The notes beneath the pieces were generated by a model that was given only the letters and a program-made list of their open reading frames with translations, did no database searches and was not told the DNA's origin. 64,000 bases of DNA from Alphaproteobacteria bacterium (GTDB lineage Bacteria; Pseudomonadota; Alphaproteobacteria; VGEJ01). The stretch covers positions 457,484-521,483 of the forward strand of contig CBDFKF010000003.1 in NCBI GenBank assembly GCA_965248765.1. Direction: 5' to 3'. Below are positions 3,524 through 17,656 of this stretch, piece after piece (within the stretch, counting starts at the first letter, position 1; each line of letters begins with the position of its first letter). Made by a program: the position numbers and the translations under genes.

Positions 3524-4162
3524 CTAGTCGAGAAGAGCGCGCCAGGCCGGCCAGGCGGCGATGCGCTCGGCCATCATGGCGTAAGCGGGTGCCGTCGGAT
3601 GGATGCCGTCGCCTGAGGCGATGGCGGCGCGCCACGCGCCTTCGTCGACCAGCCCGGCGAAAAGATCGAGATAGGGCACTCCGATCTCAGCGGCGAGCGC
3701 TGCGTATGCAGCGTTGTAGTCGCCGATCCGGGAGTTGGTGTAGTCGTAGACGGCGCCAGTGAACGCGGTGATCGGCATCTTCGTCTCGTCGATCGGCGTC
3801 GGACCGATCCACATCGAGGGCTTCCAGTCCACAGCCTCGGCGAAGATGCCTCGCGCGGTTGCTACGGCTGCTTCGAGTGGAACGCGGATGCCGGCTCCCG
3901 CCTCCTCGGCGGTTTCGTTCAAGCCGAAGGCGAAGAGAAGAACCCCCATCACCCCATCCGGCAAACGGGCCGTGCACTCGGCACGCCAACGGGTGGCGAT
4001 CTCCACCCCGGTGTCGGCCCGTATGCCGATGTTGTAGAGGCCAGGGTCGTGGCCGCGGTCGGCCTCGATCCGAGCCAGACGTCCGCACCAGCCGAGCGCC
4101 TCGCCGTCGCCGCGGCCATGGGTGATCGAATCGCCCACGCAGCACGTCACCAGTGCAGTCAT
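3524..4162 (-). CDS. SGNH/GDSL family hydrolase, paralog 2 (~50% identical to paralog 1 by eye)
   Basis: MTALVTCCVGDSITHG...AFGLNET...DGIHPT...YAMMAERIAAWPAWRALLD aligns along its whole length with the 1520..2158 product; start ATG overlaps cca stop (ATGA). Confidence 0.7.
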   Translation of the reverse strand: MTALVTCCVGDSITHGRGDGEALGWCGRLARIEADRGHDPGLYNIGIRADTGVEIATRWRAECTARLPDGVMGVLLFAFGLNETAEEAGAGIRVPLEAAVATARGIFAEAVDWKPSMWIGPTPIDETKMPITAFTGAVYDYTNSRIGDYNAAYAALAAEIGVPYLDLFAGLVDEGAWRAAIASGDGIHPTAPAYAMMAERIAAWPAWRALLD

Positions 4163-5403
4163 GTAGTTTCCTTTTTGATCAATTGCTCAAGCCGTTCGAG
4201 GCAGGCGGCACGATCGGCGCGATAGTCGGTTTGCTGCCACCAGTCCTCGACCGCGCGCACGAGCCGGCCGACGTCCGGCCCCGGCGGCACGCCGCGGGCG
4301 AGGGTATCAGCGCCGCGCACCGGAAGCATCGGCGCCTCCCACGACGATGCTTCGGCCAGCAACGCGGGCCAGTCGTCGAAGTCCCGAGCCTCGGCCTGGG
4401 CTAGCAGAACGAGATCGACAAAGCGTTCCACGCCGAGGCGATAGAGCGCACGGCGGCGGGCACGTCGGTCCATGCCGACGAGACTGACGGGCAGCTCGGC
4501 CAGCACCTCCAGGCGCTCACGTTGGCGCGCCGATAGACGGAGCCGCTCCGCCACCGCGCGCGCGGCCGCAACATCGCTCCTGAGGAGCGCGGCCAGCCGG
4601 CGCTCAGCATCCGGTTCATCCTCGAGCTCGATCAGCTGCCGGAGGCGATCCCGACGGTCCGCCTCAGGCAGGATGACACCGAGGATGTCCGCCTCGGCCA
4701 TCTGGTCCACTACCTCCGCGGCGCGTGCACTCGCCAAGAGCCGCAGCAATTCCGCCGCGATCCGCTCGCCCGATAGCCGGCGCAGATCATCCGCGGCGGC
4801 GCTGCAGGCGGCGTACCCCGGCGCGTCGAGCGGACCGCGGCCGTACGAGGAATGAAACCGGAAGAACCGGAGGATGCGGAGCGCATCCTCCTTAATGCGC
4901 CGCGCCGGCTCACCGACGAAGCGAACACGGCCGGCCTTGAGGTCGGGGAGACCGCCGGTGGGATCGTAGAGCGTGCCATCAGGATCGCAGTAGATCGCGT
5001 TGATCGTCAGGTCGCGTCGCGCGGCATCCGCCTCCCAGTCATCGGTGAACGCGACCCGGGCACGGCGGCCAAAGGTCTCAACATCCTGTCGCAGGCTGGT
5101 GACCTCGGCCTGCCAATCGGCGATGACAACGGTGATCGTGCCGTGCTCGATGCCAGTCGGCACGGTCTTGATGCCCGCCGCCTCCAGCAAATGACGGGCG
5201 CGTTCGGGTTCGATCGGCGTCGCGATATCGATGTCCTTGATCTCGCGCCCGACAACGGAATCTCGGACGCAACCGCCCACGAAGCGCGTCGGACCGGCAG
5301 CGGCGAGCGCCGCCACGGTCGCCGTCGTTTCCGCTGCCGTCATCCACGGCAGGGGATCGATCTTTCCCGCGGGAGTCAAAATGGGGCGACCGCCCGTGAG
5401 CAC
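4159..5403 (-). CDS. cca: CCA tRNA nucleotidyltransferase (poly(A) polymerase / CCA-adding enzyme family)
   Basis: ...RFVGGCVRDSVVGREIKDIDIAT...EHGTITVV...RRDLTINAIY... is the head domain of class II nucleotidyltransferases with the CCA-enzyme C-terminal region; alternative start at 5343. Confidence 0.8.
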   Translation of the reverse strand: MLTGGRPILTPAGKIDPLPWMTAAETTATVAALAAAGPTRFVGGCVRDSVVGREIKDIDIATPIEPERARHLLEAAGIKTVPTGIEHGTITVVIADWQAEVTSLRQDVETFGRRARVAFTDDWEADAARRDLTINAIYCDPDGTLYDPTGGLPDLKAGRVRFVGEPARRIKEDALRILRFFRFHSSYGRGPLDAPGYAACSAAADDLRRLSGERIAAELLRLLASARAAEVVDQMAEADILGVILPEADRRDRLRQLIELEDEPDAERRLAALLRSDVAAARAVAERLRLSARQRERLEVLAELPVSLVGMDRRARRRALYRLGVERFVDLVLLAQAEARDFDDWPALLAEASSWEAPMLPVRGADTLARGVPPGPDVGRLVRAVEDWWQQTDYRADRAACLERLEQLIKKETT

Positions 5404-5416
5404 TCAGTTCGCGCGC

Positions 5417-5698
5417 TCACTCTGTCTCCGCGGGGATGACCTCACCATCCTCGCCAAGGCGCGGAGCGGTGTAGGTGCCGCCCGGCTCGAACCGGCCGAC
5501 CTGGCTCACGGCGAAGAACGAGATGATCATCAATACGAGCCCGGCAGTGGTCAACCAGACCAGCGGCGCATCACGCCACGACACCGCTCCCGCCGTGCCC
5601 ATCAGCCTGGCCCGGCGCCGCTCATACCAAAACCACAGCGCATAGACGATGAAGGGCAGAGCAAAAAATAGCCCGTGAAGCAGTATCTTTCTCAACAT
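5417..5698 (-). CDS. small hypothetical membrane protein (two predicted TM helices)
   Basis: 93 codons, MLRKILLHGLFFALPFIVYALWFWYERRR...; start overlaps nudL stop; co-oriented with cca. Confidence 0.45.
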   Translation of the reverse strand: MLRKILLHGLFFALPFIVYALWFWYERRRARLMGTAGAVSWRDAPLVWLTTAGLVLMIISFFAVSQVGRFEPGGTYTAPRLGEDGEVIPAETE

Positions 5699-6315
5699 CC
5701 GTCGGTGAGCTTGTCGTGGAGATTGACGAGCATGCCGGCCGTTGCGCCCCAGATCCGCCGGCCGTCGTAAGGCAGCACGTAAAACTGACGCTCGACGCCA
5801 CGAATGACCATCGTCTCGCGACGGTGGTTGTCGGCGTCGAGGACGAAAGCGAGCGGCACTTCGAACGCGTCGGCGACCTCGAAGGGATCGAGCCTCAAAT
5901 GGAGTTCGGGATCGACGATGCCGACCACCGGAGTTATGCGGAATCCGGTGCCGGTCTCGTAGATATCGAGACGACCGATCACCTCGACGTGGTGCGGCGC
6001 CAACCCGATCTCCTCTTCGGATTCACGAAGTGCGGTTGCGATCGGCCCGTCATCGTGAGGCTCCTCGCGACCACCCGGAAAACTGATCTGGCCGGCGTGG
6101 TCGCGAAGATGCTCGGTACGCTGGGTCAACAGCACCGTCATGCCGCCAGGCCGCGCCACCAACGGCACGAGCACGGCGGCCGCGGTGAATGAGAGACCCT
6201 TCCACGCCCCGGGATTGAGGTCATAATCGCCGCGGAGCCTGGCCAGCGCACGCTTTTCATCGATTCGCACCGCCTCGCCAACGGGATGAAGGCGCGATCT
6301 CAGGAGCGTCTGCAT
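5692..6315 (-). CDS. NUDIX hydrolase, CoA pyrophosphatase-like (NudL family)
   Basis: Nudix box GGREEPHDDGPIATALRESEEEIGL plus upstream LLTQRTEHLRDHAGQISFPGG characteristic of CoA pyrophosphatases; start chosen at MQTLL (6315). Confidence 0.75.
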   Translation of the reverse strand: MQTLLRSRLHPVGEAVRIDEKRALARLRGDYDLNPGAWKGLSFTAAAVLVPLVARPGGMTVLLTQRTEHLRDHAGQISFPGGREEPHDDGPIATALRESEEEIGLAPHHVEVIGRLDIYETGTGFRITPVVGIVDPELHLRLDPFEVADAFEVPLAFVLDADNHRRETMVIRGVERQFYVLPYDGRRIWGATAGMLVNLHDKLTDGC

Positions 6316-6346
6316 GTCGCTACAACTGGCGCCGCCGAGCGCCGCT

Positions 6347-6937
6347 TCAAGAGCCAACCGCCTCGAGACGGCCGAGGGCGAAGAAGGAGCCACTGCTCCA
6401 GACGCCGAACACGCGATCGTGACTCGGCCCCACTTCGACACCGAGCTCAACCAAGTCATAGTAAACAGAGCGGGCAATCAGCGCTTCCAGCCCGTCCCGC
6501 ACGAGGACGTAAGGCGCCGGCTCGTCTGTGCCCGGATCGAAGGTCACGCGTATCGGGTGGTCGGCATCGGCGGTGACGTGCTCGTCGAGGTTGGTGCGAA
6601 ATCGGAGTGCCTGTTCCTGTCCGTCATGCTCACGGAACAATTCGACGGCGATGAACGGCGCATCGTCCACTTCGATGCGCCCTTTCTCGACCGGTGTAAC
6701 GAGGTAATAGCAGCCGTCGGGCTCGTGCCTCAGCACGCTCGCGAACAGCTTGACCAACGGTTTGCGGCCGATGAGCGTGCCGTGATAGTACCAAGTTCCG
6801 TCCCTGGCAATCCGCATATCGAGATCATCGCAGGCGACGGCCGACCGATCGTCGGCGGGCCGCCGCGTCCCTGCGGAATCGGCGCCGCTGCCGCTCTGAG
6901 CTGGAGTTGCGATGGTTTCGCCGTCGTTCTCGATCAT
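6347..6937 (-). CDS. DUF1285 domain protein
   Basis: ...IARDGTWYYHGTLIGRKPLVKLFASVL...YYLVTPVEKGRIEVDDAPF... matches the conserved DUF1285 core; divergent from the moxR-like gene. Confidence 0.6.
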   Translation of the reverse strand: MIENDGETIATPAQSGSGADSAGTRRPADDRSAVACDDLDMRIARDGTWYYHGTLIGRKPLVKLFASVLRHEPDGCYYLVTPVEKGRIEVDDAPFIAVELFREHDGQEQALRFRTNLDEHVTADADHPIRVTFDPGTDEPAPYVLVRDGLEALIARSVYYDLVELGVEVGPSHDRVFGVWSSGSFFALGRLEAVGS

Positions 6938-6978
6938 CGGTCGCCAGGGCAAACGAGTGTGCCGGCGGGAGTTCCACG

Positions 6979-8010
6979 ATGAGTATAACTGACGACACCA
7001 CTGCCGCCACCGCCGCCCCATCTACGGTGAGTGAGCCGGCAGCAGTGCAGGAGATCGAGGCGCTCGCGACGCAGATCAAGGCCGTACGCGACCACGTCGG
7101 CCAGTTCATATTCGGCCAGGAGGAGGTCGTCGATCAGGCGCTGATCACCTTGCTCTCGGGCGGTCATGCACTGGTGATCGGCGTTCCGGGGCTGGCCAAG
7201 ACCAGACTCGTCGAGACCCTTGCGGTCGTCCTTGGCATGATGGAGAAGCGCGTCCAGTTCACCCCTGATCTCATGCCTGCCGACATCCTCGGATCGGAGG
7301 TGTTGGAGGAATCGGAGAGCGGGCGCCGCTCGTTCCGCTTCATCGAGGGCCCTGTGTTCTGCCAGCTGCTGATGGCCGATGAGATCAATCGCGCCAGTCC
7401 GCGAACGCAATCAGCGCTGCTACAAGCCATGCAGGAGAACGAGGTCTCGGTTGCCGGCCGGCGACATCCCCTGCCCCGCCCCTTCCACGTGCTGGCGACG
7501 CAGAACCCGCTGGAGCAAGAGGGAACCTACCCACTGCCCGAGGCTCAGCTCGATCGCTTCCTGATGCAGATCGACATCGGCTATCCCGACCTCGAGGCCG
7601 AGCGCCGGATGTTGATCGCCACCACGGGGATCGAAGAGCACGCGCCACAGCAAGTGATGACCGCCGATGATCTACGCGCGGCCCAGCGTCTCGTGCGGCG
7701 TGTTCCGATCGGGGAGAGCGTGGTCAAGGCGATCCTCGCGGTGGTCCGGTCCGGACGCCCTGAAGACACCGATATCGAAACGGTACGCGACCACGTGGCG
7801 TGGGGACCGGGGCCGCGCGCCAGCCAAGCTCTTATGCTTGCCTGTCGTGCCCGGGCGCTGTTGGAGGGGCGCCTGGCCCCGTCGGTGGACGACGTCATCG
7901 CGCTCGCCCCGCCAACGCTGCGCCACCGCATGGCGCTCACGTTCGCGGCACGCGCCGAAGGCATCACGATCGTGCAGGTGATCGCGCGCCTGTGCCAGCC
8001 CCTCGGCTGA
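6979..8010 (+). CDS. MoxR-family AAA+ ATPase
   Basis: GHALVIGVPGLAKT (Walker A), LLMADEINRASPRTQSALLQAMQE (Walker B/sensor), classic MoxR layout; start at MSITDD. Confidence 0.85.
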   Translation: MSITDDTTAATAAPSTVSEPAAVQEIEALATQIKAVRDHVGQFIFGQEEVVDQALITLLSGGHALVIGVPGLAKTRLVETLAVVLGMMEKRVQFTPDLMPADILGSEVLEESESGRRSFRFIEGPVFCQLLMADEINRASPRTQSALLQAMQENEVSVAGRRHPLPRPFHVLATQNPLEQEGTYPLPEAQLDRFLMQIDIGYPDLEAERRMLIATTGIEEHAPQQVMTADDLRAAQRLVRRVPIGESVVKAILAVVRSGRPEDTDIETVRDHVAWGPGPRASQALMLACRARALLEGRLAPSVDDVIALAPPTLRHRMALTFAARAEGITIVQVIARLCQPLG

Positions 8011-8028
8011 CCGGACGCGATCGAGACG

Positions 8029-8919
8029 GTGGCTGAATCCGGGAGCGAACAGGCCGAAGTCTTACGTCAGCGGGCGGAACAGCTCGCGGCGCCGTTGCCG
8101 CCTTTGTTGGTCTCGGCCGAGCGAGTGGCCATGACCGTCGCCCAGGGTGTACACGGTCGGCGCCGCGTCGGCTCCGGCGAGACATTCTGGCAGTTCCGGC
8201 GCTATCAGACCGGCGATCCGGCCAGCGCAATCGACTGGCGCACATCGGCCAAGACCCAGCGTCTGTATGTGCGCCAGACCGAGTGGGAGGCGGCCGAGAG
8301 CGTGTGGCTGTGGCGCGATGCCTCGCCCTCGATGCACTACCGCTCGTCGGTCTCAGAGGTCGAGAAGATCGATCGGGCAAACTTGCTGACGCTGGCGCTG
8401 GCGGTGCTGCTGGCGCGCGCCGGCGAGCATGTCGCCCTGTTGGGCACCGATCGCCTGGCCCGGACCGGGCGGGCGGCGATCGCGGGGATCGCGGATGCCT
8501 TCATGCGCGTGCGCGAAGGGCCGAGTCTTCCCCCCTTTGAGCAACTGCCACGGGATGCGCAGATCGTCATCATCGGTGATTTCCTGTCGCCGGTCGCCGA
8601 CCTCGAGAACCGACTGACCCAGTACGCGGGCATCGGCCTTCAGGGACACCTTCTCCAAGTGCGAGATGCCGCCGAGGAGGATCTGCCGTTCACCGGCCGC
8701 GCCCGGTTCGAAGGCTTGGAGGCCGACGGCCAGGTGATGGTGGGCCGAGTGGAAGTATTGCGCGAGAGCTACTTCGAGCGCTTGGCCGCGCGGCGGGCCA
8801 ACCTTACGGCGCTGGCCAGTCGGCTCCATTGGACATTCGCCACCCACCGCACCGACCGACCGCCGGAGACGGCGTTGATGGCGTTGTATGCCGCCCTGTC
8901 GGGAGGTCGGCTACACTGA
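8029..8919 (+). CDS. DUF58 domain protein (MoxR-associated, vWA-like)
   Basis: GETFWQFRRYQTGDPASAIDWRTSAKTQRLYVRQTEWE is the DUF58 hallmark; immediately downstream of moxR-like gene. Confidence 0.8.
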   Translation: MAESGSEQAEVLRQRAEQLAAPLPPLLVSAERVAMTVAQGVHGRRRVGSGETFWQFRRYQTGDPASAIDWRTSAKTQRLYVRQTEWEAAESVWLWRDASPSMHYRSSVSEVEKIDRANLLTLALAVLLARAGEHVALLGTDRLARTGRAAIAGIADAFMRVREGPSLPPFEQLPRDAQIVIIGDFLSPVADLENRLTQYAGIGLQGHLLQVRDAAEEDLPFTGRARFEGLEADGQVMVGRVEVLRESYFERLAARRANLTALASRLHWTFATHRTDRPPETALMALYAALSGGRLH

Positions 8920-8923
8920 TGCC

Positions 8924-11680
8924 ATGCTGAGCATCGGCGGCCTTGCCTTCGCCAGCCCGTGGATCCTGCTCGGCCTTGGGCTGTTGTCGCTGCTGTGGTG
9001 GCTGTTGCGGGCGACGCCACCCGCGCCGCGCCAAATCCCGTTCCCGGCCACGCGGCTGCTCCTGGGCCTCAAGCCGACCGAGGAAACGCCGGCCCGTACG
9101 CCATGGTGGCTCCTGCTTCTGCGTCTTGTCATCGCCGCGCTTATCATCGTCGCGCTGGCGCGGCCGCTCTTGAACGCCGTGGGCGCGTTCGGCGGCAGTG
9201 GTCCGGTCGTTCTGGTCGTCGACGACGGCTGGGCCTCGGCACCGGATTGGGAGAAGCGGCGCGCCGCGCTGGCGACGCTCATCGACCGGGCTCGCCGCGC
9301 AGATCGTCCGGTCCGCCTGCTGACCACGGCCGTGCCGGTGAGCGGCGTTCCGGTCTCCGCGCCGCCGCTGATGACCGCGGACGAGGCCCAGGATGCGGTC
9401 CGGTCGCTGGCGCCAAAGCCCTGGCCGGTAAAGCGGGCGGCCGCGCTGGCCGCCGTCGAGGCGGCGGCCCTAAGCGGACCCGCGGATGTCGTGTGGATCG
9501 CCGATGGGCTGATGGGGCGCGACGACGATGCAGGGATCGTCGAGTTCGCGGCATCGCTACAGCGGATGGGCCCCGTGGCAATGATCAGCGACGAAGAGCC
9601 GGCCCTGGCGATGGCGCTGCTGCCACCGGAGAGCGATGGTAACGCGCTGCGCGTCAGCGCCTTGCGGGCAAGCGCCGCCGCCGAAGAGACGCGGTGGCTG
9701 CGGGCGACCGGCGAGGGCGGTGTCGTTCTCGGCCGCGAACCCTTGAAATTCGACGCCGGCGAGTCGAGCGCGGCGGCGCTCCTCGATCTACCGCGGGAGG
9801 TGCGCAATCGATTGACCCGGCTCGAGATCGAGGGCGAGCAAAGCGCCGGCGCGGTGGTGTTGATGGACGAGCGCTGGCGCCGTCGGCCGGTGGGTCTGGC
9901 TTCGGGCGAATCGGTCGAATCGGCGCAACCGCTTCTTTCTGATCTCTTTTATCTCGAACGCGCTCTCGAGCCATTCGGTGAAGCCTTCCGCGGCAGCCTC
10001 GCAGATCTCCTGACGCGGCAGCTCGCGATCATCATCCTCGCCGACATCGGCCAGATCGTCGGCCCTGGTCGCACCGCCCTCGAGGAGTGGGTACGTGACG
10101 GAGGTGTCTTCGTACGCTTTGCCGGACCGCGGCTCGCCGAGCGGGTCGATGACCTGGTGCCCGTCGCGCTGCGGAGCGGCGGCCGCCTGCTGGGCGGCGC
10201 GATGACCTGGCCTCAGGCCGCGAGCATCGCGCCGTTCGCGGCCGACAGCCCGTTCTTCGGCCTGTCAGTACCCCAGGACGTGCGGGTGGAACGCCAGGTG
10301 CTGGCGCAGCCCTCGCTAAATCTTGCCGACAAAACCTGGGCACGGCTCGAGGACGGGACACCGCTCGTCACCGCCGAACGGCGGGGCGCAGGCTGGATCG
10401 TCCTGTTCCACATCACCGCCAACACCGAGTGGTCGAACCTGCCGCTGAGCGGTCTGTTCGTCGACATGCTGCGGCGAGTGACGGACCTGAGCCGCGGCAT
10501 TGCCGGGCTGGGCGGCGATACACCGCTTCCACCGCTCCTAAGTCTCGATGGCTTCGGCCGGCTCGGAGCGCCGCCTCCGGGGGCGCGCGCGGTCGTCCCA
10601 ACTGCCATGGCCGTGAGCACGGTCGGGCCGACGTTGCCGCCCGGGTTCTACGGCACCGAGGAGGCCCGCCACGCGATCAATGTCGGCGCCGAGCTGACCG
10701 AGCTGCGGCCGATCGCGGCGCTCCCCCAAGGCGTCAAACGAGCCGGCTTCAGCGCGAGCCGGGAGGTCGACCTGATGCCATGGCTGCTGGCAGCGGCGGT
10801 CGTGCTGGGGCTGTTGGACCTTGTCGCCAGCTTCGCCCTGCGCGGCTATCTGCTACCGCGCCGCGGGCTCGCCGCGGGCATACTGCTGGCCGCGGTGCTC
10901 GCGCAGGAGCCGGTGTCCGCCGCCGAGTTCGAAGATCAGTTCGCCATCGAGGCGACCCGCGAGACGCGGTTTGCCTATGCGCTGACCGGCGACCGCGAGG
11001 TCGATGTGATGAGCGCCGCTGGGCTGCGCGGCCTCACGCGCTGGCTCGCCGAACGCACCGCCGTGGAGGCGGCGCCACCGATGGGCGTCAACGTCGAGAC
11101 CGACGAGCTCGTGTTCTTCCCACTTCTCTACTGGCCGATGATCCCCGAGCAGCGCCCGCTGTCAGGGTCGGCGTTGGCCAAGCTTGATGCCTACATGAAG
11201 AACGGCGGGCTGATTCTGTTCGATACCCGCGATCAAGGGGAGATCGGCGCGCTGCCGCAACGGCTGCGGAGCCGCCAGGGCGGCGTGGTCGGTGCCGGGA
11301 CCCAGAGCCTGCGACGCCTCTTGCGGCGACTGGATATTCCGCCGCTGATGCCGCTGCCGCCCGATCACGTGCTGACCAAGACGTTCTATCTGCTGGACGT
11401 GTTTCCGGGCCGCTGGGAGGGCGGCAAGGTCTGGATCGAGCGCGATCCGGCCAGCATCAACGATGGTGTCTCCTCGCTCGTCATCGGCGCCAACGACTGG
11501 GCCGCGGCATGGGCAGAGGATGCCTCCGGGCGGCCGCTGGCGGCGCTGGTGCCGGGTGGCGCGCGCCAGCGCGAGCTCGCCTTTCGCTTCGGCACCAACG
11601 TCGTCATGTACGCCCTGAGCGGGAACTACAAGGCCGATCAGGTGCACGTGCCGGCGATCCTCGAACGGCTCGGCCAGTAG
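8924..11680 (+). CDS. large membrane protein with BatA-like N-terminal double-transmembrane domain (~918 aa)
   Basis: N-terminus MLSIGGLAFASPWILLGLGLLSLLWWLLR...WWLLLLRLVIAALIIVALARP (two TM helices) then long soluble region; stop TAG 4 bp before next ORF. Confidence 0.7.
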   Translation: MLSIGGLAFASPWILLGLGLLSLLWWLLRATPPAPRQIPFPATRLLLGLKPTEETPARTPWWLLLLRLVIAALIIVALARPLLNAVGAFGGSGPVVLVVDDGWASAPDWEKRRAALATLIDRARRADRPVRLLTTAVPVSGVPVSAPPLMTADEAQDAVRSLAPKPWPVKRAAALAAVEAAALSGPADVVWIADGLMGRDDDAGIVEFAASLQRMGPVAMISDEEPALAMALLPPESDGNALRVSALRASAAAEETRWLRATGEGGVVLGREPLKFDAGESSAAALLDLPREVRNRLTRLEIEGEQSAGAVVLMDERWRRRPVGLASGESVESAQPLLSDLFYLERALEPFGEAFRGSLADLLTRQLAIIILADIGQIVGPGRTALEEWVRDGGVFVRFAGPRLAERVDDLVPVALRSGGRLLGGAMTWPQAASIAPFAADSPFFGLSVPQDVRVERQVLAQPSLNLADKTWARLEDGTPLVTAERRGAGWIVLFHITANTEWSNLPLSGLFVDMLRRVTDLSRGIAGLGGDTPLPPLLSLDGFGRLGAPPPGARAVVPTAMAVSTVGPTLPPGFYGTEEARHAINVGAELTELRPIAALPQGVKRAGFSASREVDLMPWLLAAAVVLGLLDLVASFALRGYLLPRRGLAAGILLAAVLAQEPVSAAEFEDQFAIEATRETRFAYALTGDREVDVMSAAGLRGLTRWLAERTAVEAAPPMGVNVETDELVFFPLLYWPMIPEQRPLSGSALAKLDAYMKNGGLILFDTRDQGEIGALPQRLRSRQGGVVGAGTQSLRRLLRRLDIPPLMPLPPDHVLTKTFYLLDVFPGRWEGGKVWIERDPASINDGVSSLVIGANDWAAAWAEDASGRPLAALVPGGARQRELAFRFGTNVVMYALSGNYKADQVHVPAILERLGQ

Positions 11681-11699
11681 ACGGCGCCGGGGAACCGCG

Positions 11700-13769
11700 T
11701 TGACGGCCGTTACGGATATCGCCTTCGCGCCAGCGCTGCCATGGCCGGTGATCGTGGTTCTCGCAGCAGCCGCGGCGCTCTTGCTGGGCTTCGGGCTTTG
11801 GCGCCGCGCCGGAGGCTTGGGATGGCGCGCGCTCGGCTTAGCGGCGCTGCTCCTCGCGCTCGCCAACCCGAGCCTGATCTCGGAGAAGCGCGAGCCCCTG
11901 AACGACGTCGCCGCGGTCATCGTCGATCGCTCCGCGAGCCAGCGGATCGGCGATCGCCTGGCCGACGCTGCCACAGCGGCTGAGCGACTCGAGGCGGCGT
12001 TGGCGGGATTGAGCGATCTCGAGGTGCGCATCGTCGAAGTCGGCGCCGAAGAGAGCGAGGGCGGCGACGGCACGCACCTGTTCGCCGCACGTGAGCGGAT
12101 CCTCGCCGATACCCCGCCTGAACGGGTCGCGGGCACAGTCTTCATCACCGATGGCCAGGTGCACGACGTGCCGCCGCAGGCCAAGGGGCACGGCGGGCCG
12201 GTCCACGTCCTGCTCACCGGCCAGCCCGGGGAACGCGACCGGCGCTTGATCGTCGAGACGGCGCCGCACTACGGCATGGTCGGCGGCACCCTCGGCCTGC
12301 GCGTCCGGGTAGACGACGGCACCGACGAACGCCGCACGGTGCGGCTCGGGCTGCGCCAGGACGGCGGCGAAGTGCGCAGCCACATGGTGCGCACCGGGAT
12401 CGTCACGACCGTGCCGTTCCGGCTGGACCACGGCGGCCCGACGGTGATCGAGCTTGAGGCAGCGCCAGCCGAGGCCGAGCTCACACTCGAGAACAACCGG
12501 GCCGCGATCATCGTCAACGGAATCCGCGATCGGCTTCGGGTGCTGCTGGTCTCGGGCGAGCCACACCCCGGCCAGCGGACTTGGCGAGCACTGCTCAAGG
12601 CCGATCCTTCGGTCGATCTGGTCCATTTCACGATTCTGCGGCCGCCCGAGAAACAGGATGGCACCCCTGTGCGCGATCTTTCGCTGATCGCGTTTCCGGT
12701 ACGCGAGCTGTTCGAGGTCAAGCTCAATGACTTCGACCTGATCATCTTCGACCGCTATCGCCGCCGCTGGCTGCTGCCGGGGCTCTATCTGCAGAACATC
12801 GCCGATTACGTGTATGGCGGCGGCGCCGTGCTGGACGCCGCGGGGCCCTCGTTCGCCTCATCTTTGAGCCTCTATCGAACGGCGCTTGGCCAGGTGCTGC
12901 CGAGCGCGCCGACCGGCGTGGTGATCGACGAGCCCTACCGGGCCGAGCTGACCGCCCATGGCTGGCGCCACCCGGTGACCGGCGAGCTTGCCGGCGCCGA
13001 ATCGGCTGACAGCGCCGATGGCACAAGCTGGGGGCGGTGGTTCCGTCTGATCGAGGCGCAGGCAAACGCTGGCACGGTGCTGATGTCTGGACCCGGTGCT
13101 CGGCCTCTGCTGGTGCTCGACCGCGTCGGCGAGGGACGGGTCGCCCAGCTCCTCTCGGACCATGGCTGGCTGTGGGCGCGCGGCTACGAAGGCGGCGGGC
13201 CGCAGGCGGAACTCCTGCGCCGGGTAGCTCATTGGCTGATGAAGGAGCCGGATCTCGAGGAGAACGACCTACGCGCTCACGCGGCCGGTCGACGTCTCGA
13301 GATCGTTCGCCGCAGCCTCGAGCCGGACGACAGCCCGGTCCGTGTCACCGCGCCGTCCGGCGGCGTCAGCGAGGTAACCCTGGAGGCCGATCGGGCGGGA
13401 CGCGCGGTCGCCACGGTCCGCGCCGAGGAGGCCGGGCTCTACCGTGTAGAGGACCGCCTCCACCACACCGTGGCCGCCGTCGGTGCAGTCAATCCGCTTG
13501 AATTCGCCGACGTACGCGCCAGCGCGGAGGTCCTGGCACCGATCGTCGAAGCGACCGGCGGCGCGGTGCACTGGCTACAGGACGGCGTGCCGAGTATCCG
13601 GCGCGTGCGCCCCGGCGTCGAGGCGGCAGGCTCGGGTTGGATCGGGCTGCGCGCGAACAGCGTCTACGTCGTGCGCGGGTTGCGCCAATATCCGCTCCTG
13701 CCGGCGGTGCTGGTGCTAGCGCTCGCCCTCGGCGGCCTGATGGCAGCGTGGTGGCGCGAGGGGCGCTAG
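11700..13769 (+). CDS. large membrane protein, second BatA-like/N-terminal double-TM protein of the MoxR cluster (~689 aa)
   Basis: TTG/GTG-type start; N-terminal TM pair (VIVVLAAAAALLLGFGLW..., LGLAALLLALANP) and C-terminal TM (LLPAVLVLALALGGLMAAWW). Confidence 0.65.
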   Translation: MTAVTDIAFAPALPWPVIVVLAAAAALLLGFGLWRRAGGLGWRALGLAALLLALANPSLISEKREPLNDVAAVIVDRSASQRIGDRLADAATAAERLEAALAGLSDLEVRIVEVGAEESEGGDGTHLFAARERILADTPPERVAGTVFITDGQVHDVPPQAKGHGGPVHVLLTGQPGERDRRLIVETAPHYGMVGGTLGLRVRVDDGTDERRTVRLGLRQDGGEVRSHMVRTGIVTTVPFRLDHGGPTVIELEAAPAEAELTLENNRAAIIVNGIRDRLRVLLVSGEPHPGQRTWRALLKADPSVDLVHFTILRPPEKQDGTPVRDLSLIAFPVRELFEVKLNDFDLIIFDRYRRRWLLPGLYLQNIADYVYGGGAVLDAAGPSFASSLSLYRTALGQVLPSAPTGVVIDEPYRAELTAHGWRHPVTGELAGAESADSADGTSWGRWFRLIEAQANAGTVLMSGPGARPLLVLDRVGEGRVAQLLSDHGWLWARGYEGGGPQAELLRRVAHWLMKEPDLEENDLRAHAAGRRLEIVRRSLEPDDSPVRVTAPSGGVSEVTLEADRAGRAVATVRAEEAGLYRVEDRLHHTVAAVGAVNPLEFADVRASAEVLAPIVEATGGAVHWLQDGVPSIRRVRPGVEAAGSGWIGLRANSVYVVRGLRQYPLLPAVLVLALALGGLMAAWWREGR

Positions 13770-14281
13770 GCATGACGAGATGCCACGCGGCCGGGCCCGA
13801 CCGCTGGCGCCACCGGGCCGGCGAGGCCACCGAGCGCACCCGGTTTCAGCTCCAGCACAAGAAAGCGCGCCGCATCGAGCGGAAACGGCAGGCGTAGCGG
13901 CCCCTCGACCGCGGTGAAGCCGAAACGGCCGAGAAAGCCGACATCGCCGATCGCCAGCACGACCGGCTCATCGCGCCGGCGCGCGGCCGCAAGGCCCTGT
14001 TTCATGAGAGCGCTGCCGATGCCGTGCCGTTGGCACTCTGGATCGGTCGCGACCGGCCCGAGCAGGAGGGTCGGCGTCTCGGCGATGCGAACGGCGTGAA
14101 AACGGATGGCGCCCCGCAGCTCCGTGCCGATCACGGCGACAAAGCCGAGCCCTTGGACCGGAGCGCCGCCGACACGCAGGCGATAGGACTCTCGACGATG
14201 ACGCTGGGGCCCGAAAGCGCGATCGTAGAGCGCCTCGATGGCAATGGCGTGGCCCGGGTTTTCCGACGCGATAGTGAACAT
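13766..14281 (-). CDS. GNAT family N-acetyltransferase
   Basis: ...QRHGIGSALMKQGLAAARRRDEPVVLAIGDVGFLGRFGF... acetyl-CoA binding motif A (Q/RxxGxG/A); convergent with previous gene sharing a CTAG stop. Confidence 0.7.
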   Translation of the reverse strand: MFTIASENPGHAIAIEALYDRAFGPQRHRRESYRLRVGGAPVQGLGFVAVIGTELRGAIRFHAVRIAETPTLLLGPVATDPECQRHGIGSALMKQGLAAARRRDEPVVLAIGDVGFLGRFGFTAVEGPLRLPFPLDAARFLVLELKPGALGGLAGPVAPAVGPGRVASRHA

Positions 14282-14525
14282 GGCTAACCTCCGATCCTTC
14301 AGGGACCAGGGGCGGCGGCCTCACCTGCCGGCTGGAGGTACCGATGTTCGAATTTCGTGGAAGAACTACCGGCTCAGGCGGTCAGACGCGCGCGCCCCGC
14401 ACGCGTGCGCGGAGCCGTCGTCGTCGGAGCCGGGTGCGTGTTGCGCCGGGCAGTCCATGGCCGCATCGAGCCGTCATGGCGGGAGCGATAGCACGCGTGT
14501 GCGGGCAGGACCATGTTTTGACGCC

Positions 14526-15446
14526 TCAGCGCGGGTCGGCGCCCGGCGTATCCCAATAAGGCGTCGGTGCGAACCGCTCGGCGAAGTAATCGAGGAAGGC
14601 GCGGACCTTCGGCGACAGGTGGCGGTTGTGGGGGTAGACCGCGTAGACCGAGCGCTCCGCTGATTCGAAGTCGGTAAGGATCGCACGCAGTCGGCCGCTC
14701 TGAATGTCCGCGCCAACGATGAAGCTCGGCAGGTGGCCAACGCCGAGGCCGACGATCAGCGCATCGCGGAGCGCTTCCCCGTTGTCGGCCTGGAAGTTGC
14801 CCCGCACTCGCGCCGCCGTCGGGCCGTCCGCCCCGTCGAAACGCCATTCGTCCTGGGTGGTCAAGAGGGTGTAGTTGAGGCAGTTGCGGTCGGTGAGGTC
14901 GGCGGGTGTCCGTGGCGTGCCGTGCGTGTCGAGGTAGGACGGCGCCGCACAGGCGATCACGCGGCACGGCGCGAGCTTGCGCGCGATCAGACTGGAATCG
15001 GCGAGCTTAGCGACGCGAATCGCGAGGTCGTAACCCTCCTCGATCACGTCGACAAAATGATCCGTCATGCGCATGTCGATAGCGAGCTCGGGATAGCGCG
15101 CAACGAAATCGGGAATGGCAGGCGCAATGTGCATCTAGCCGAAGCTCATGGGCACGTTGACCCTCAGCGTGCCGCGCGGCTCGGCATGAAGTCGGGTCAC
15201 CGCGAGCTCGGCTGCCTCGACCTCGGCGAGCGCGCGAGCGCAGTGCTCGTAGTACGCGGCACCCACCTCGGTCAGACTCAACCGCCGGGTGGTGCGATTC
15301 ATCAACCGCGCGCCGAGGCGATCCTCGAGGCGCTTGACATGCTTGCTGATCGCCGATTTGGACAGGCCGAGCCGTCGCGCGGCGCCGGAGAAGCTCCGCG
15401 CCTCGACCACCTCGCCGAAGACCGCCATGCCAGTGAGCCGGTCCAT
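14526..15446 (-). pseudogene. LysR-family transcriptional regulator interrupted by an in-frame TAG (reverse-strand codon at 15135-15137)
   Basis: Two same-frame ORFs: HTH part MDRLTGMAVFGEVVEARSFSGAARRLGLSKSAISKHVKRLEDRLG...LRVNVPMSFG then TAG, then MHIAPAIPDFVARYPELAIDMRMTD... (LysR substrate-binding domain); read directly from sequence. Confidence 0.6.
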
Positions 15447-15560
15447 GACCGGGACCGATTATGCAACTGGGTACCCACGATTGGTAGTCTCAGAGAAACA
15501 ATCCCAGTGCCGCCGCAAGCGACCGCCTCGGAATCGAGATGATTCGCGGATGCCGGCCGG

Positions 15561-15908
15561 CTAGCGCGCGGCGCTGATAACGATCTCGACCTTGAGGTCG
15601 GGAAAGGCCAGGCGCGATTCAGCGGTCGCGCGCGCCGGCGTGTTCTCGGGGTCGACCCAGGCATCCCAGGCCTCATTCATCTCGTCATAGTAGGCAATGT
15701 GGGAGAGCCAGATCTGAGCGGTCAGCAGCTTGGACTTGTCGCTGCCGACTCGGGCCAAGAGGCCGTCGATCTTCGCCAAGATCTGCGCGGTTTGGACTTT
15801 AGCCGAGGCCGCGCTGTCATTGGCCACCTGCCCAGCGAGAAAAACGTGATCGCCATGTACCACCATCTGGCTCATGCGGGGTCCGACGTCGTGTCGCTCA
15901 ATCGTCAT
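15561..15908 (-). CDS. RidA/YjgF/TdcF family protein (reactive intermediate deaminase-like)
   Basis: MTIERHDVGPRMSQMVVHGDHVFLAGQVA...; AGGAGG precedes ATG at 15908. Confidence 0.75.
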   Translation of the reverse strand: MTIERHDVGPRMSQMVVHGDHVFLAGQVANDSAASAKVQTAQILAKIDGLLARVGSDKSKLLTAQIWLSHIAYYDEMNEAWDAWVDPENTPARATAESRLAFPDLKVEIVISAAR

Positions 15909-16053
15909 CGCTCTGTAACCTCCTAGGGGATGAAAAGGGTAGTGATCATCGTGCGCCGAGTGCTCTGCCCGGGAGAGATATCTCCTTGAGCGTACCCCCG
16001 CCGACACCCGCGCAAGGAACCGCTGCGGCAAGATCATCGCGAAGTTGGGGCGC

Positions 16054-16462: not shown

Positions 16463-17656
16463 TCAAGCAAAGGCGCGCCGGCGCTCGATAAGCAGAATAA
16501 GGAGCGTCAGGCAGGCGGCCACCATGAAGCCGGCGACGATCAGCGTGAGCGGGACTTGGGTACCGTCACGCAACAGCCCCACTGTCATGGTGGCGAGCGC
16601 CGCCATCGCCATCTGGGCGAAGCCCAACAGCGCCGAGGCGGTGCCGGCGATCTCGGGGAACGCGCTCAGCGCGCCCGCCGTGGCGTAGGGGAACACCAGC
16701 CCGATGCCGACGGCGACAACCATGATCGGACCAAGGATAACGACGGCATTGAAGACGCCTGAAAGCGCGAAGGCGGCCATGGCCACACCGCCGATCAGAG
16801 AGATAGCGGTTCCAGCGACCACTGCTGCGTCGATCCTGAGACGATGGGAGAAGCGCCCGGCCATCAGTGAGGAGAGCGCGTAGGCGCCGACGCCGAGCAG
16901 CGCGAACCAGCCGTAGACGGTTTCCGGGTAGCCGAGCATTTCAACGAAGATGAATGGCGATTCGGACATGTAGGCGAACAGTCCACCAAAGACGAAGCCC
17001 GAGTTCACTGTATAGCCGACGAACGCCGGCGACCGTATGAGGCGGAGGTAGCTTGATGCCATGCCGGCGAACGCCGAGGGCCTTACCCCGACAAAGCGAT
17101 TGGTCTCTGTCAGCGCGCGGAAACTCCACATCCCGATGGCAGTGCCGACCACGGCGATGAACAGGAAATTGGCGGGCCAGCCGAACCAGACGTGGAGATA
17201 GGCGCCGATCGCCGGCGCGAAGGCCGGCGAGACGCCGAGCACCAGACCGACATAGGCCATAACCCGAGCCGCCTCTTCGCCGTCGTAGAGATCGCGGATG
17301 ACGGCGCGGCCGACCACGGAGCCGGTGCAGGCGCCTATCGATTGCGCGAAGCGGGCGGCGATCAAGGCCTCGACCGATGGGGCCACAGCGCAGGCGATGC
17401 TCGCGAGCACATACAGACCGAGGCCGATCAACATCACCGGCCGCCGACCATAGCGGTCCGACAGCGGACCGAGGACGAGTTGGCTGATGGCAAAGCCGGC
17501 GAGATAGACGGTGAGCGTGAGCTGCAGAATTGCGGCGGTGGTGTCGAGCTCCACCGTCATCGCCGGCATCGAGGGCATGTAAATGCTGGTGGAAAGCTGA
17601 CCGATGGCGATCAGCGATGAGACCAGCGCGATGACGAGGCCGGGGCGGGATTCCAT
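16463..17656 (-). CDS. MFS transporter, Bcr/CflA drug-resistance subfamily
   Basis: 12-TM profile, LGPLSDRYGRRPVML motif after TM2, overall Bcr/CflA-like. Confidence 0.85.
   Translation of the reverse strand: MESRPGLVIALVSSLIAIGQLSTSIYMPSMPAMTVELDTTAAILQLTLTVYLAGFAISQLVLGPLSDRYGRRPVMLIGLGLYVLASIACAVAPSVEALIAARFAQSIGACTGSVVGRAVIRDLYDGEEAARVMAYVGLVLGVSPAFAPAIGAYLHVWFGWPANFLFIAVVGTAIGMWSFRALTETNRFVGVRPSAFAGMASSYLRLIRSPAFVGYTVNSGFVFGGLFAYMSESPFIFVEMLGYPETVYGWFALLGVGAYALSSLMAGRFSHRLRIDAAVVAGTAISLIGGVAMAAFALSGVFNAVVILGPIMVVAVGIGLVFPYATAGALSAFPEIAGTASALLGFAQMAMAALATMTVGLLRDGTQVPLTLIVAGFMVAACLTLLILLIERRRAFA

Follow-up and report, generated by a model that had tools for sequence, protein, structure and literature searches.

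This report concerns four closely spaced genes for a MoxR-type AAA+ ATPase, a DUF58 protein and two large inner-membrane proteins of 918 and 689 amino acids (aa), located on the plus strand at positions 6979 to 13769 of a 64,000-nucleotide stretch (the window) of contig CBDFKF010000003.1 from an alphaproteobacterial assembly (GCA_965248765.1, positions 457,484 to 521,483). The four genes are very probably the local orthologue of the alphaproteobacterial cmdABCD operon, known in Rhizobium leguminosarum as RL3499-RL3502. The module is already known and not new; it was described genetically in 2011. On balance, we favour the explanation that the window harbors a cmdABCD orthologue which, as a relative of the Bat operons, serves envelope integrity and cell shape and which would act by the mechanism proposed below. 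This mechanism, taken as a whole, is tentative, and we give it somewhat less than an even chance.

Organization of the operon

The first gene encodes a cmdA-like MoxR AAA+ ATPase of the MRP type (6979..8010, 343 aa; whole open reading frame (ORF) 6907..8010). In public assemblies its start is called both at ATG 6979 (343 aa) and at GTG 7045 (321 aa). It is followed on the plus strand by a cmdB-like DUF58 gene (8029..8919, 296 aa, PF01882) and by the genes of a cmdC-like (8924..11680, 918 aa; whole ORF 8888..11680) and a cmdD-like (11700..13769, 689 aa) inner-membrane protein, the intergenic gaps amounting to 18, 4 and 19 bp. The length of 918 aa with ATG 8924 as start is supported because the homologues span 900-925 aa. 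Thousands of full-length homologues exist for each of the two large proteins, which are real genes and not chance ORFs. Divergently oriented to the operon lies a DUF1285 gene on the minus strand (6347..6937), whose product was matched by Pfam DUF1285_N (E 2e-24) and DUF1285_C (E 6e-35). Its longest ORF extends to 7021 (224 aa). Since this reading overlaps the MoxR start and the R. leguminosarum orthologue comprises 207 aa, ATG 6937 is, judged from the sequence, probably the true start, giving a protein of 196 aa. The G+C content around the module is 64-72%. A preliminary description of this DNA, made from its letters, had listed these five genes with DUF1285 divergent and with large proteins of 918 and 689 aa, in agreement with the ORFs and family matches; its gene identities (DUF1285, MoxR AAA+, DUF58) were confirmed by Pfam. 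The tight packing that it gave, with gaps of 19, 4 and 19 bp, holds for the last two values, while the first gap is 18 bp, a trivial difference.

Relationship to the cmd operon of Rhizobium leguminosarum

RL3499-RL3502 of R. leguminosarum was tied to the window by sequence. A tblastn search of PLSDB with the 689-aa protein yielded, among other records, sequences of Rhizobium and Sinorhizobium. The record of R. leguminosarum bv. viciae contains on the minus strand genes for CCA tRNA nucleotidyltransferase, CoA pyrophosphatase and DUF1285, and on the plus strand genes for MoxR, DUF58, a 937-aa DUF4159 protein and a 689-aa hypothetical protein, followed by a minus-strand N-acetyltransferase gene. 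The eight-gene arrangement of the window is exactly that of this record. Identities to the R. leguminosarum operon proteins are 63% for MoxR, 44% for DUF58, 39% for the 918-aa protein and 43% for the 689-aa protein, the two latter aligning full-length with their counterparts of 937 and 689 aa. The products of the neighboring genes are related as well (DUF1285 46%, Nudix 50%, CCA 44%, GNAT 33%). In the record of S. meliloti, the CCA enzyme, DUF1285, MoxR, DUF58 and the DUF4159 protein are listed in matching order; the gene tables of PLSDB are incomplete, that of S. meliloti lacking the Nudix gene and the 689-aa gene, though the tblastn match of the 689-aa protein sits there.

The locus tags were assigned by help of published insertion sequencing (INSeq) data. 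The MoxR, DUF58 and 937-aa genes of the R. leguminosarum record contain 13, 20 and 42 TA dinucleotides, while 14, 18 and 42 potential insertion sites have been published for RL3499, RL3500 and RL3501 of strain 3841; the agreement therefore fixed the correspondence to RL3499-RL3501. The window and R. leguminosarum thus have in common the order of the four genes and the flanks (DUF1285, CoA pyrophosphatase and CCA enzyme on one side, an acetyltransferase on the other). The copy in the window differs by its host, and no structural distinction was found.

Vanderlinde et al. reportedly described the operon in 2011 as coding for a moxR-like ATPase, a protein of the DUF58 family and two transmembrane proteins regarded as hypothetical, and its expression is said to be highest in stationary phase and to depend on chvG.

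In the published accounts, the operon has four genes, is called in a title a 'broadly conserved operon' and is designated cmdA-cmdD for 'complex media growth deficient'. These accounts state that R. leguminosarum cmd operon mutants fail to grow on complex medium and have an altered envelope and morphology, that RL3499 is a MoxR protein of the MRP subfamily important for membrane integrity and morphology, and that the operon interacts genetically with the TPR gene ttpA. They also recognise its kinship with the Bacteroides aerotolerance (Bat) operon and mention a predicted, uncharacterised cmd operon of B. abortus (bab1_1573-1576). In transposon sequencing, insertions into RL3499, RL3500 and RL3501 were growth-defective on TY medium. 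The preliminary description had regarded function and substrate of the module as undefined. This is still valid for the biochemical substrate but no longer for the function in the genetic sense, as evident from the R. leguminosarum mutant phenotypes. Later mechanistic literature on cmd/MoxR was sought for Brucella, Caulobacter, Agrobacterium and Sinorhizobium and yielded only a table of the CenR regulon of R. sphaeroides, in which the 'putative MoxR family protein' RSP_1024 is among the direct targets of this essential regulator of envelope and division (PMC9275681).

In many Alphaproteobacteria, among them Rhizobium, Sinorhizobium and, by prediction, Brucella, the operon belongs to the core genome, and cmd is one of the few MoxR systems that have a clear genetic phenotype yet no known client. 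Its detection in the window adds nothing new in kind; database labels already exist for three of the products (MoxR family ATPase, DUF58 domain-containing protein and DUF4159 domain-containing protein). [quoted passage not shown] This picture turns the question of the MoxR/DUF58 target into specific experiments with point mutants and on topology.

Conservation of the module

A scan of one genome per species gave more than 555 relatives, and 80 loci were examined. Synteny was determined by tblastn of the window proteins against these 80 loci. The order MoxR-DUF58-918-689 was colinear in 63 of the 64 alphaproteobacterial loci that had sufficient upstream DNA to be informative, which span Rhodospirillales, Parvibaculales, Hyphomicrobiales and Rhodobacterales. 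Taxa with the module include Stella, Azospirillum, Inquilinus, Parvibaculum, Pelagibius, Methyloceanibacter, other Hyphomicrobiales, Roseicyclus and Actibacterium, relatives of the Rhodospirillales type (Stella, Inquilinus, Azospirillum) showing 55-57% identity. For the 689-aa protein, at least 8000 close relatives are present in the databases, all of about 690 aa, and 967 clusters (50% identity) were obtained at E<=1e-30. Conservation of the gene neighbourhood across alphaproteobacteria, suggested as a check in the preliminary description, was thus found, and the locus is a stable core-genome block.

Exceptions to the synteny were seen in the loci L077, L056, L063, L069, L070 and L021. Five of these retain the four genes of the operon but have no DUF1285 gene beside them. 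In L077 the Nudix gene lies immediately beside MoxR. In L021 only the end of the 918-aa gene was seen upstream of the 689-aa gene, which may be a problem of assembly or masking. Two PLSDB records labelled as plasmids, L081 (NZ_CP022567.1) and L082 (CP090106.1), carry the housekeeping genes for the CCA enzyme and leuA, L081 in addition hemF. One of the two is a 3.7-Mb sequence of S. meliloti labelled pSymB. Both look like chromosomal sequence mislabelled as plasmid.

The MoxR ATPase and the DUF58 protein

The MoxR protein was matched by Pfam AAA_3 (E 2.6e-58) and AAA_lid_2 (E 8e-14) and by the structure PDB 2r44 (E 3e-66). Its Walker A (GVPGLAKT) and Walker B (LLMADEINRA) motifs are kept in 62-63 orthologous loci. 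The DUF58 protein (PF01882, E 1e-29) has no transmembrane (TM) segment. Residues 97-101 form a MIDAS-type D-x-S-x-S motif, which is present in all orthologues (65/65). DUF58 is counted in Pfam among the vWA-like clan. The suggestion that MoxR and DUF58 form a remodelling pair with the two anchored proteins as partners was judged reasonable. An anti-phage or conflict system of the MoxR-vWA kind (bpMoxR ternary systems, PADLOC families) was considered and rejected, none of the five proteins matching PADLOC. The bpMoxR family of Pfam gave 42 bits with MoxR, far under the 196 bits of AAA_3, and there is no beta-propeller gene.

Architecture of the two large proteins

AlphaFold2 models were calculated on alignments of 25 homologues for the 689-aa and 27 homologues for the 918-aa family, with a mean predicted local distance difference test (pLDDT) score of 83 and 75, respectively. 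In the models, the secondary-structure maps of the two proteins are parallel: each has a hairpin, then a vWA domain of the alpha/beta type, a beta-sandwich, a GATase1-like domain that is likewise alpha/beta, one or more beta-rich domains and a TM. Sequence homology between the two was not detectable in the profile comparison, hhalign giving 29% probability over the full length, confined to the region of TM2 and the first domain, and at most 6% domain by domain. The parallel architecture is therefore one of predicted folds only. The preliminary description had noticed a double-TM anchor at the start of both proteins, which was borne out by TIGR02226 and BatA_N as well as by hydropathy and the AlphaFold2 model. 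It had further stated that the soluble regions match nothing recognisable; this was refuted by the vWA, GATase1-like and DUF4159 domains. Of the checks that it recommended, structure prediction returned vWA, beta-sandwich and GATase1-like folds in both proteins, while HMM searches were successful with the 918-aa protein (BatA_N, TIGR02226) but gave nothing above threshold with the 689-aa protein.

The 918-aa protein is composed of a BatA_N hairpin, a vWA-like domain, a beta-sandwich, a GATase1-like domain, a beta domain, TM3, a signal-peptide-like segment and DUF4159. The hairpin (8942..9175, plus strand, aa 7-84) was matched by TIGR02226 ('N-terminal double-transmembrane domain', E 3e-17) and Pfam BatA_N (E 8e-21). 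The description of TIGR02226 predicts an N-terminus on the outside and a cytosolic loop of about 25 residues. In the 918-aa protein the loop between TM1 and TM2 comprises 32 aa with the conserved pattern TPPxP..FP..LL.L..EETPA.TPWW. Of 27 homologues, 24 keep glutamate E53 and 21 keep E54; R. leguminosarum has both ('KREETPAQSPWW'). The MIDAS site of the vWA-like domain is degenerate (DDGWA). TM3 (aa 618-639), an Arg-rich loop and the signal-peptide-like segment (aa 648-667) were located by hydropathy at 10775..10924 on the plus strand. In all 27 homologues the segment resembles a signal peptide: its start is rich in Arg, and its Ala/Leu core varies in length and is poorly conserved. In about 21 of the 27, by visual count, an (A/V/G/L)-x-A motif comes after the core, just before the conserved start of DUF4159. 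Residues 647-668 of the model have pLDDT values below 50. The DUF4159 domain itself extends over aa 682-898 (10967..11617, plus strand). These features suggest that the 918-aa gene is a fusion of a BatA-like gene to a gene for a secreted DUF4159 protein, and DUF4159 may be cleaved off in the periplasm. The solved DUF4159 (PF13709) protein Hoch_4089 (PDB 4i66), to which no function is assigned, is a stand-alone protein of about 200 aa, whereas the domain in the window is joined to a BatA-like protein, with the signal-peptide-like segment in front of it.

Along the 689-aa protein, a double-TM hairpin is followed by a vWA domain whose MIDAS is complete, a beta-sandwich, a GATase1/GIFT-like domain, a second beta-sandwich, a small alpha/beta domain and a C-terminal TM. 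Pfam and NCBIfam gave no hit above threshold with this protein, only faint ones to DUF7408, DUF7144 and DUF7406. The first and the C-terminal span were recognised by hydropathy, and the AlphaFold2 model has N-terminal helices at residues 15-34 and 40-55. The vWA domain (11868..12224, plus strand, aa 57-175) harbors the MIDAS residues D76-x-S78-x-S80, G124-T125 and T150-D151-G152. The complete site is conserved across the 689-aa family, the R. leguminosarum equivalent reading DRSQS. The domain at 12531..13244 (plus strand, aa 278-515) resembles class-I glutamine amidotransferases, is ThuA/GIFT-like and is non-catalytic. For the GATase1-like domains, the structures 3rht, 2gk3 (STM3548), the N-terminal domain of IFT52, OST48 and ThuA-like proteins outranked true amidotransferases. 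These comparators (3rht, STM3548, ThuA-like proteins, the IFT52 N-terminal domain and OST48/WBP1) are non-catalytic as well; the domains in the window differ by residing within multi-domain inner-membrane proteins, and they lack the catalytic Cys. Cysteine is absent from the 918-aa and the 689-aa protein, and neither family alignment contains a column with at least 50% Cys. A Cys-His-Glu triad is therefore impossible in the GATase-like domains, and neither protein can be a thiol-based amidotransferase or redox enzyme.

Topology of the large proteins

Net charges were averaged over the family alignments. In the 689-aa family, the TM1-TM2 loop carries +3.1, the C-tail +1.7 and the N-tail -0.7, while the regions after TM2 and before TM3 have -1.5 and +0.1 (about neutral). 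The corresponding values of the 918-aa family are +3.3 for the TM1-TM2 loop and +2.8 for the TM3-TM4 loop, -1.6 before TM3 and -1.9 after TM4. Of the five measured flanks of the domains, one is thus about neutral and the other four carry a net negative charge. Applying the positive-inside rule to these averaged charges, we therefore infer that the loops and the C-tail are cytoplasmic and that the large domains of both proteins are periplasmic. The internal signal-peptide-like segment before DUF4159 agrees with a periplasmic placement. In the BatA-type protein BB0173, which has the plan TM, BatA, vWA-MIDAS and C-terminal TM, the vWA domain has been located in the periplasm by experiment.

Proposed mechanism

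We propose that CmdA would form a cytoplasmic hexamer of the MoxR AAA+ type and that the DUF58 protein CmdB would be a cytoplasmic vWA-like adaptor docking on the ATPase ring, by analogy with NorQ-NorD. In the latter system, the pore of the MoxR hexamer is occupied by a finger of the VWA domain, the partner is twisted upon ATP hydrolysis, and the MIDAS is proposed to be the site where acidic residues in the membrane-bound target (cNOR) are bound. Likewise, the MIDAS of CmdB would hold an acidic residue of its target. Its targets would be the short cytoplasmic loops that are conserved in CmdC and CmdD, among which the 32-residue BatA_N loop of CmdC with its 'EETPA' motif is the best candidate. 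Since these loops are the only conserved cytoplasmic parts predicted for CmdC and CmdD, the DUF58 MIDAS is proposed to grip the acidic loop motif. On the other side of the membrane, the vWA domains (with the MIDAS intact in CmdD), the beta-sandwiches, the GATase1/GIFT-like domains and DUF4159 may serve as a binding scaffold for envelope components. ATP hydrolysis would not power a chemical reaction but would assemble an inner-membrane complex of CmdC and CmdD or switch its conformation.

Several points weigh against this mechanism. The contact of DUF58 with the BatA_N loop and the periplasmic ligand are put forward by analogy, and the topology is drawn from the positive-inside rule and from analogy. 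A solved relative of the DUF58 protein was found neither with the single sequence nor with a profile of 20 sequences. The intact MIDAS of CmdD might itself engage MoxR, which would require a cytoplasmic location. In Francisella, inactivation of moxR reportedly caused no detectable change in the levels of the Bat proteins, which argues against a simple role as a stability chaperone.

A bolder reading, which we regard as unlikely, takes the cmd module for a device, powered by ATP, that relays signals or force through the inner membrane via the EETPA loop to the periplasmic scaffold. The scaffold would then bind peptidoglycan or outer-membrane components, and DUF4159 would perhaps be released by signal peptidase. 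If true, the module would represent a new class of energised machine for envelope maintenance beside Tol-Pal and TonB, which would account for the shape and complex-medium phenotypes of cmd mutants.

Related systems and alternative explanations

The Bat operons of Bacteroides, spirochaetes and Francisella comprise MoxR, DUF58, BatA, BatB, BatC, BatD and BatE. They share with the window the position of MoxR in front, followed by DUF58, as well as membrane proteins that combine the BatA_N hairpin with a C-terminal TM and a vWA domain carrying a DxSxS...TDG MIDAS, as in BB0173. One might thus suppose that the module acts in aerotolerance or oxidative stress by handling periplasmic reducing power, as first proposed for Bacteroides fragilis. 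This would fit to the BatA_N domain of the 918-aa protein, termed 'aerotolerance regulator N-terminal', to the Bat core of MoxR, DUF58 and vWA membrane proteins, to the altered oxidative-stress survival of Riemerella batA and moxR mutants and, speculatively, to a link of DUF1285 and Nudix with oxidative-stress signalling. However, direct thiol redox chemistry is excluded by the lack of cysteine in the large proteins, and batABD deletions in Leptospira biflexa caused no defect in oxidative-stress survival. Moreover, the TPR (BatB/BatC), BatD and SH3 (BatE) components are missing, no Pfam matches to them being found in the operon proteins or the nearest flanking ORFs, and the large alphaproteobacterial proteins have two to three times the size of the Bat proteins, with beta-sandwich, GATase1-like and DUF4159 domains in addition. 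The phenotype reported for the characterised alphaproteobacterial orthologue concerns envelope and shape and not aerotolerance as in Bat, and we give the oxidative-stress explanation only a slim chance. Hardly better placed is the idea that the large domains are cytoplasmic and that MoxR has its direct partner in the vWA domain of the 689-aa protein, with DUF58 as a second adaptor, in a chaperone maturing an unlinked enzyme by insertion of a metal or cofactor. The full MIDAS of the 689-aa protein would suit it, the maturation of enzymes by NorQD, CbbQO and RavA-ViaA takes place from the cytoplasmic side, and metal loading by MoxR into the MIDAS sites of Bat proteins has been postulated. NorQ-NorD, CbbQ-CbbO and RavA-ViaA also have in common with the window a MoxR AAA+ protein beside a protein of the DxSxS MIDAS type, and a membrane-bound target as for cNOR. 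In the window, though, the partner is DUF58 and not a canonical VWA protein, and the presumed targets are vWA-containing membrane proteins with predicted periplasmic domains. The charge distribution in the 25 or 27 homologues, the signal-peptide-like segment ahead of DUF4159 and the periplasmic vWA domain of BB0173 all speak for loops inside and domains outside. Furthermore, a gene for a client enzyme is neither encoded nearby nor conserved beside the operon, whose neighbors are DUF1285, Nudix, CCA and a variable GNAT gene, so that we consider maturation of an unlinked enzyme quite improbable.

For the large proteins, the designation of one homologue in UniRef as 'Glutamine amidotransferase domain-containing protein' could indicate active glutamine amidotransferases or related hydrolases working on envelope precursors. 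The alpha/beta GATase1 fold is indeed present, but the catalytic Cys is missing from both proteins and from the alignment columns, and the best structural matches, the uncharacterised GATase1-like proteins 3rht and 2gk3, ranked above true amidotransferases. This reading is extremely improbable and was rejected. Another question is whether DUF1285 belongs to the module. The preliminary description had proposed a five-gene unit. If so, DUF1285 would take a functional part in the MoxR module, perhaps by sensing a nucleotide, or regulate it. Its adjacency was confirmed: DUF1285 was adjacent and divergent in 57 of 62 loci (55 by scripted count plus L006 and L008, whose DUF1285 matches abut MoxR). 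The start codons of DUF1285 and MoxR are 41 bp apart, or 107 bp if MoxR begins at GTG 7045, and therefore both units must share a control region; in R. leguminosarum the distance is 158 bp. DUF1285 structures, in addition, suggest a nucleotide-type ligand. As a unit, however, the five genes found little support. DUF1285 runs co-directionally with the CoA pyrophosphatase gene, which starts only 31 bp downstream of it, and with the CCA gene, also in R. leguminosarum. A same-strand Nudix gene was found beside DUF1285 in 47 of 54 loci, and according to the DUF1285 structure paper Nudix genes adjoin most DUF1285 genes, the family including Shewanella Sbal_2486. Five loci retain the four-gene operon without an adjoining DUF1285 gene, and the operon as published has four genes. 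A five-gene unit is therefore unlikely in our estimation, and DUF1285 probably belongs to the Nudix/CCA transcription unit and not to the cmd module.

Neighboring genes

The minus-strand genes from 3524 to 6937 are tightly packed. Reading towards the operon, they encode a GDSL lipase (3524-4162), the CCA-adding enzyme (4159..5403), whose ORF overlaps that of the lipase by 4 bp, the CoA pyrophosphatase (Nudix, 5692..6315; NCBIfam PRK10707, E 8e-45, above the curated cut-off) and DUF1285. The order CCA/Nudix/DUF1285 is the same in R. leguminosarum. The run gives the impression of a conserved unit of its own, placed back-to-back with the cmd operon. A consensus scan revealed no sigma-70-like promoter between the DUF1285 and MoxR starts (6938-7044). 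Over positions 5500-14500, three promoter-like sites were detected, none of them in the DUF1285-MoxR intergenic region, and terminator-like sites occurred at chance level. Rfam and tRNA scans over the whole window gave no match.

Downstream of the operon, a GNAT acetyltransferase gene (13766-14281, minus strand) is convergent on the 689-aa gene, with an overlap of 4 bp. A related acetyltransferase gene follows the operon in R. leguminosarum, while a GNAT gene was found directly downstream in only 17 of 75 loci. Two ORFs without Pfam match lie beyond it (14374-14967 on the minus and 14733-15542 on the plus strand). They are followed by minus-strand genes for a RidA/L-PSP protein (15561-16037) and an MFS transporter (16463-17656).

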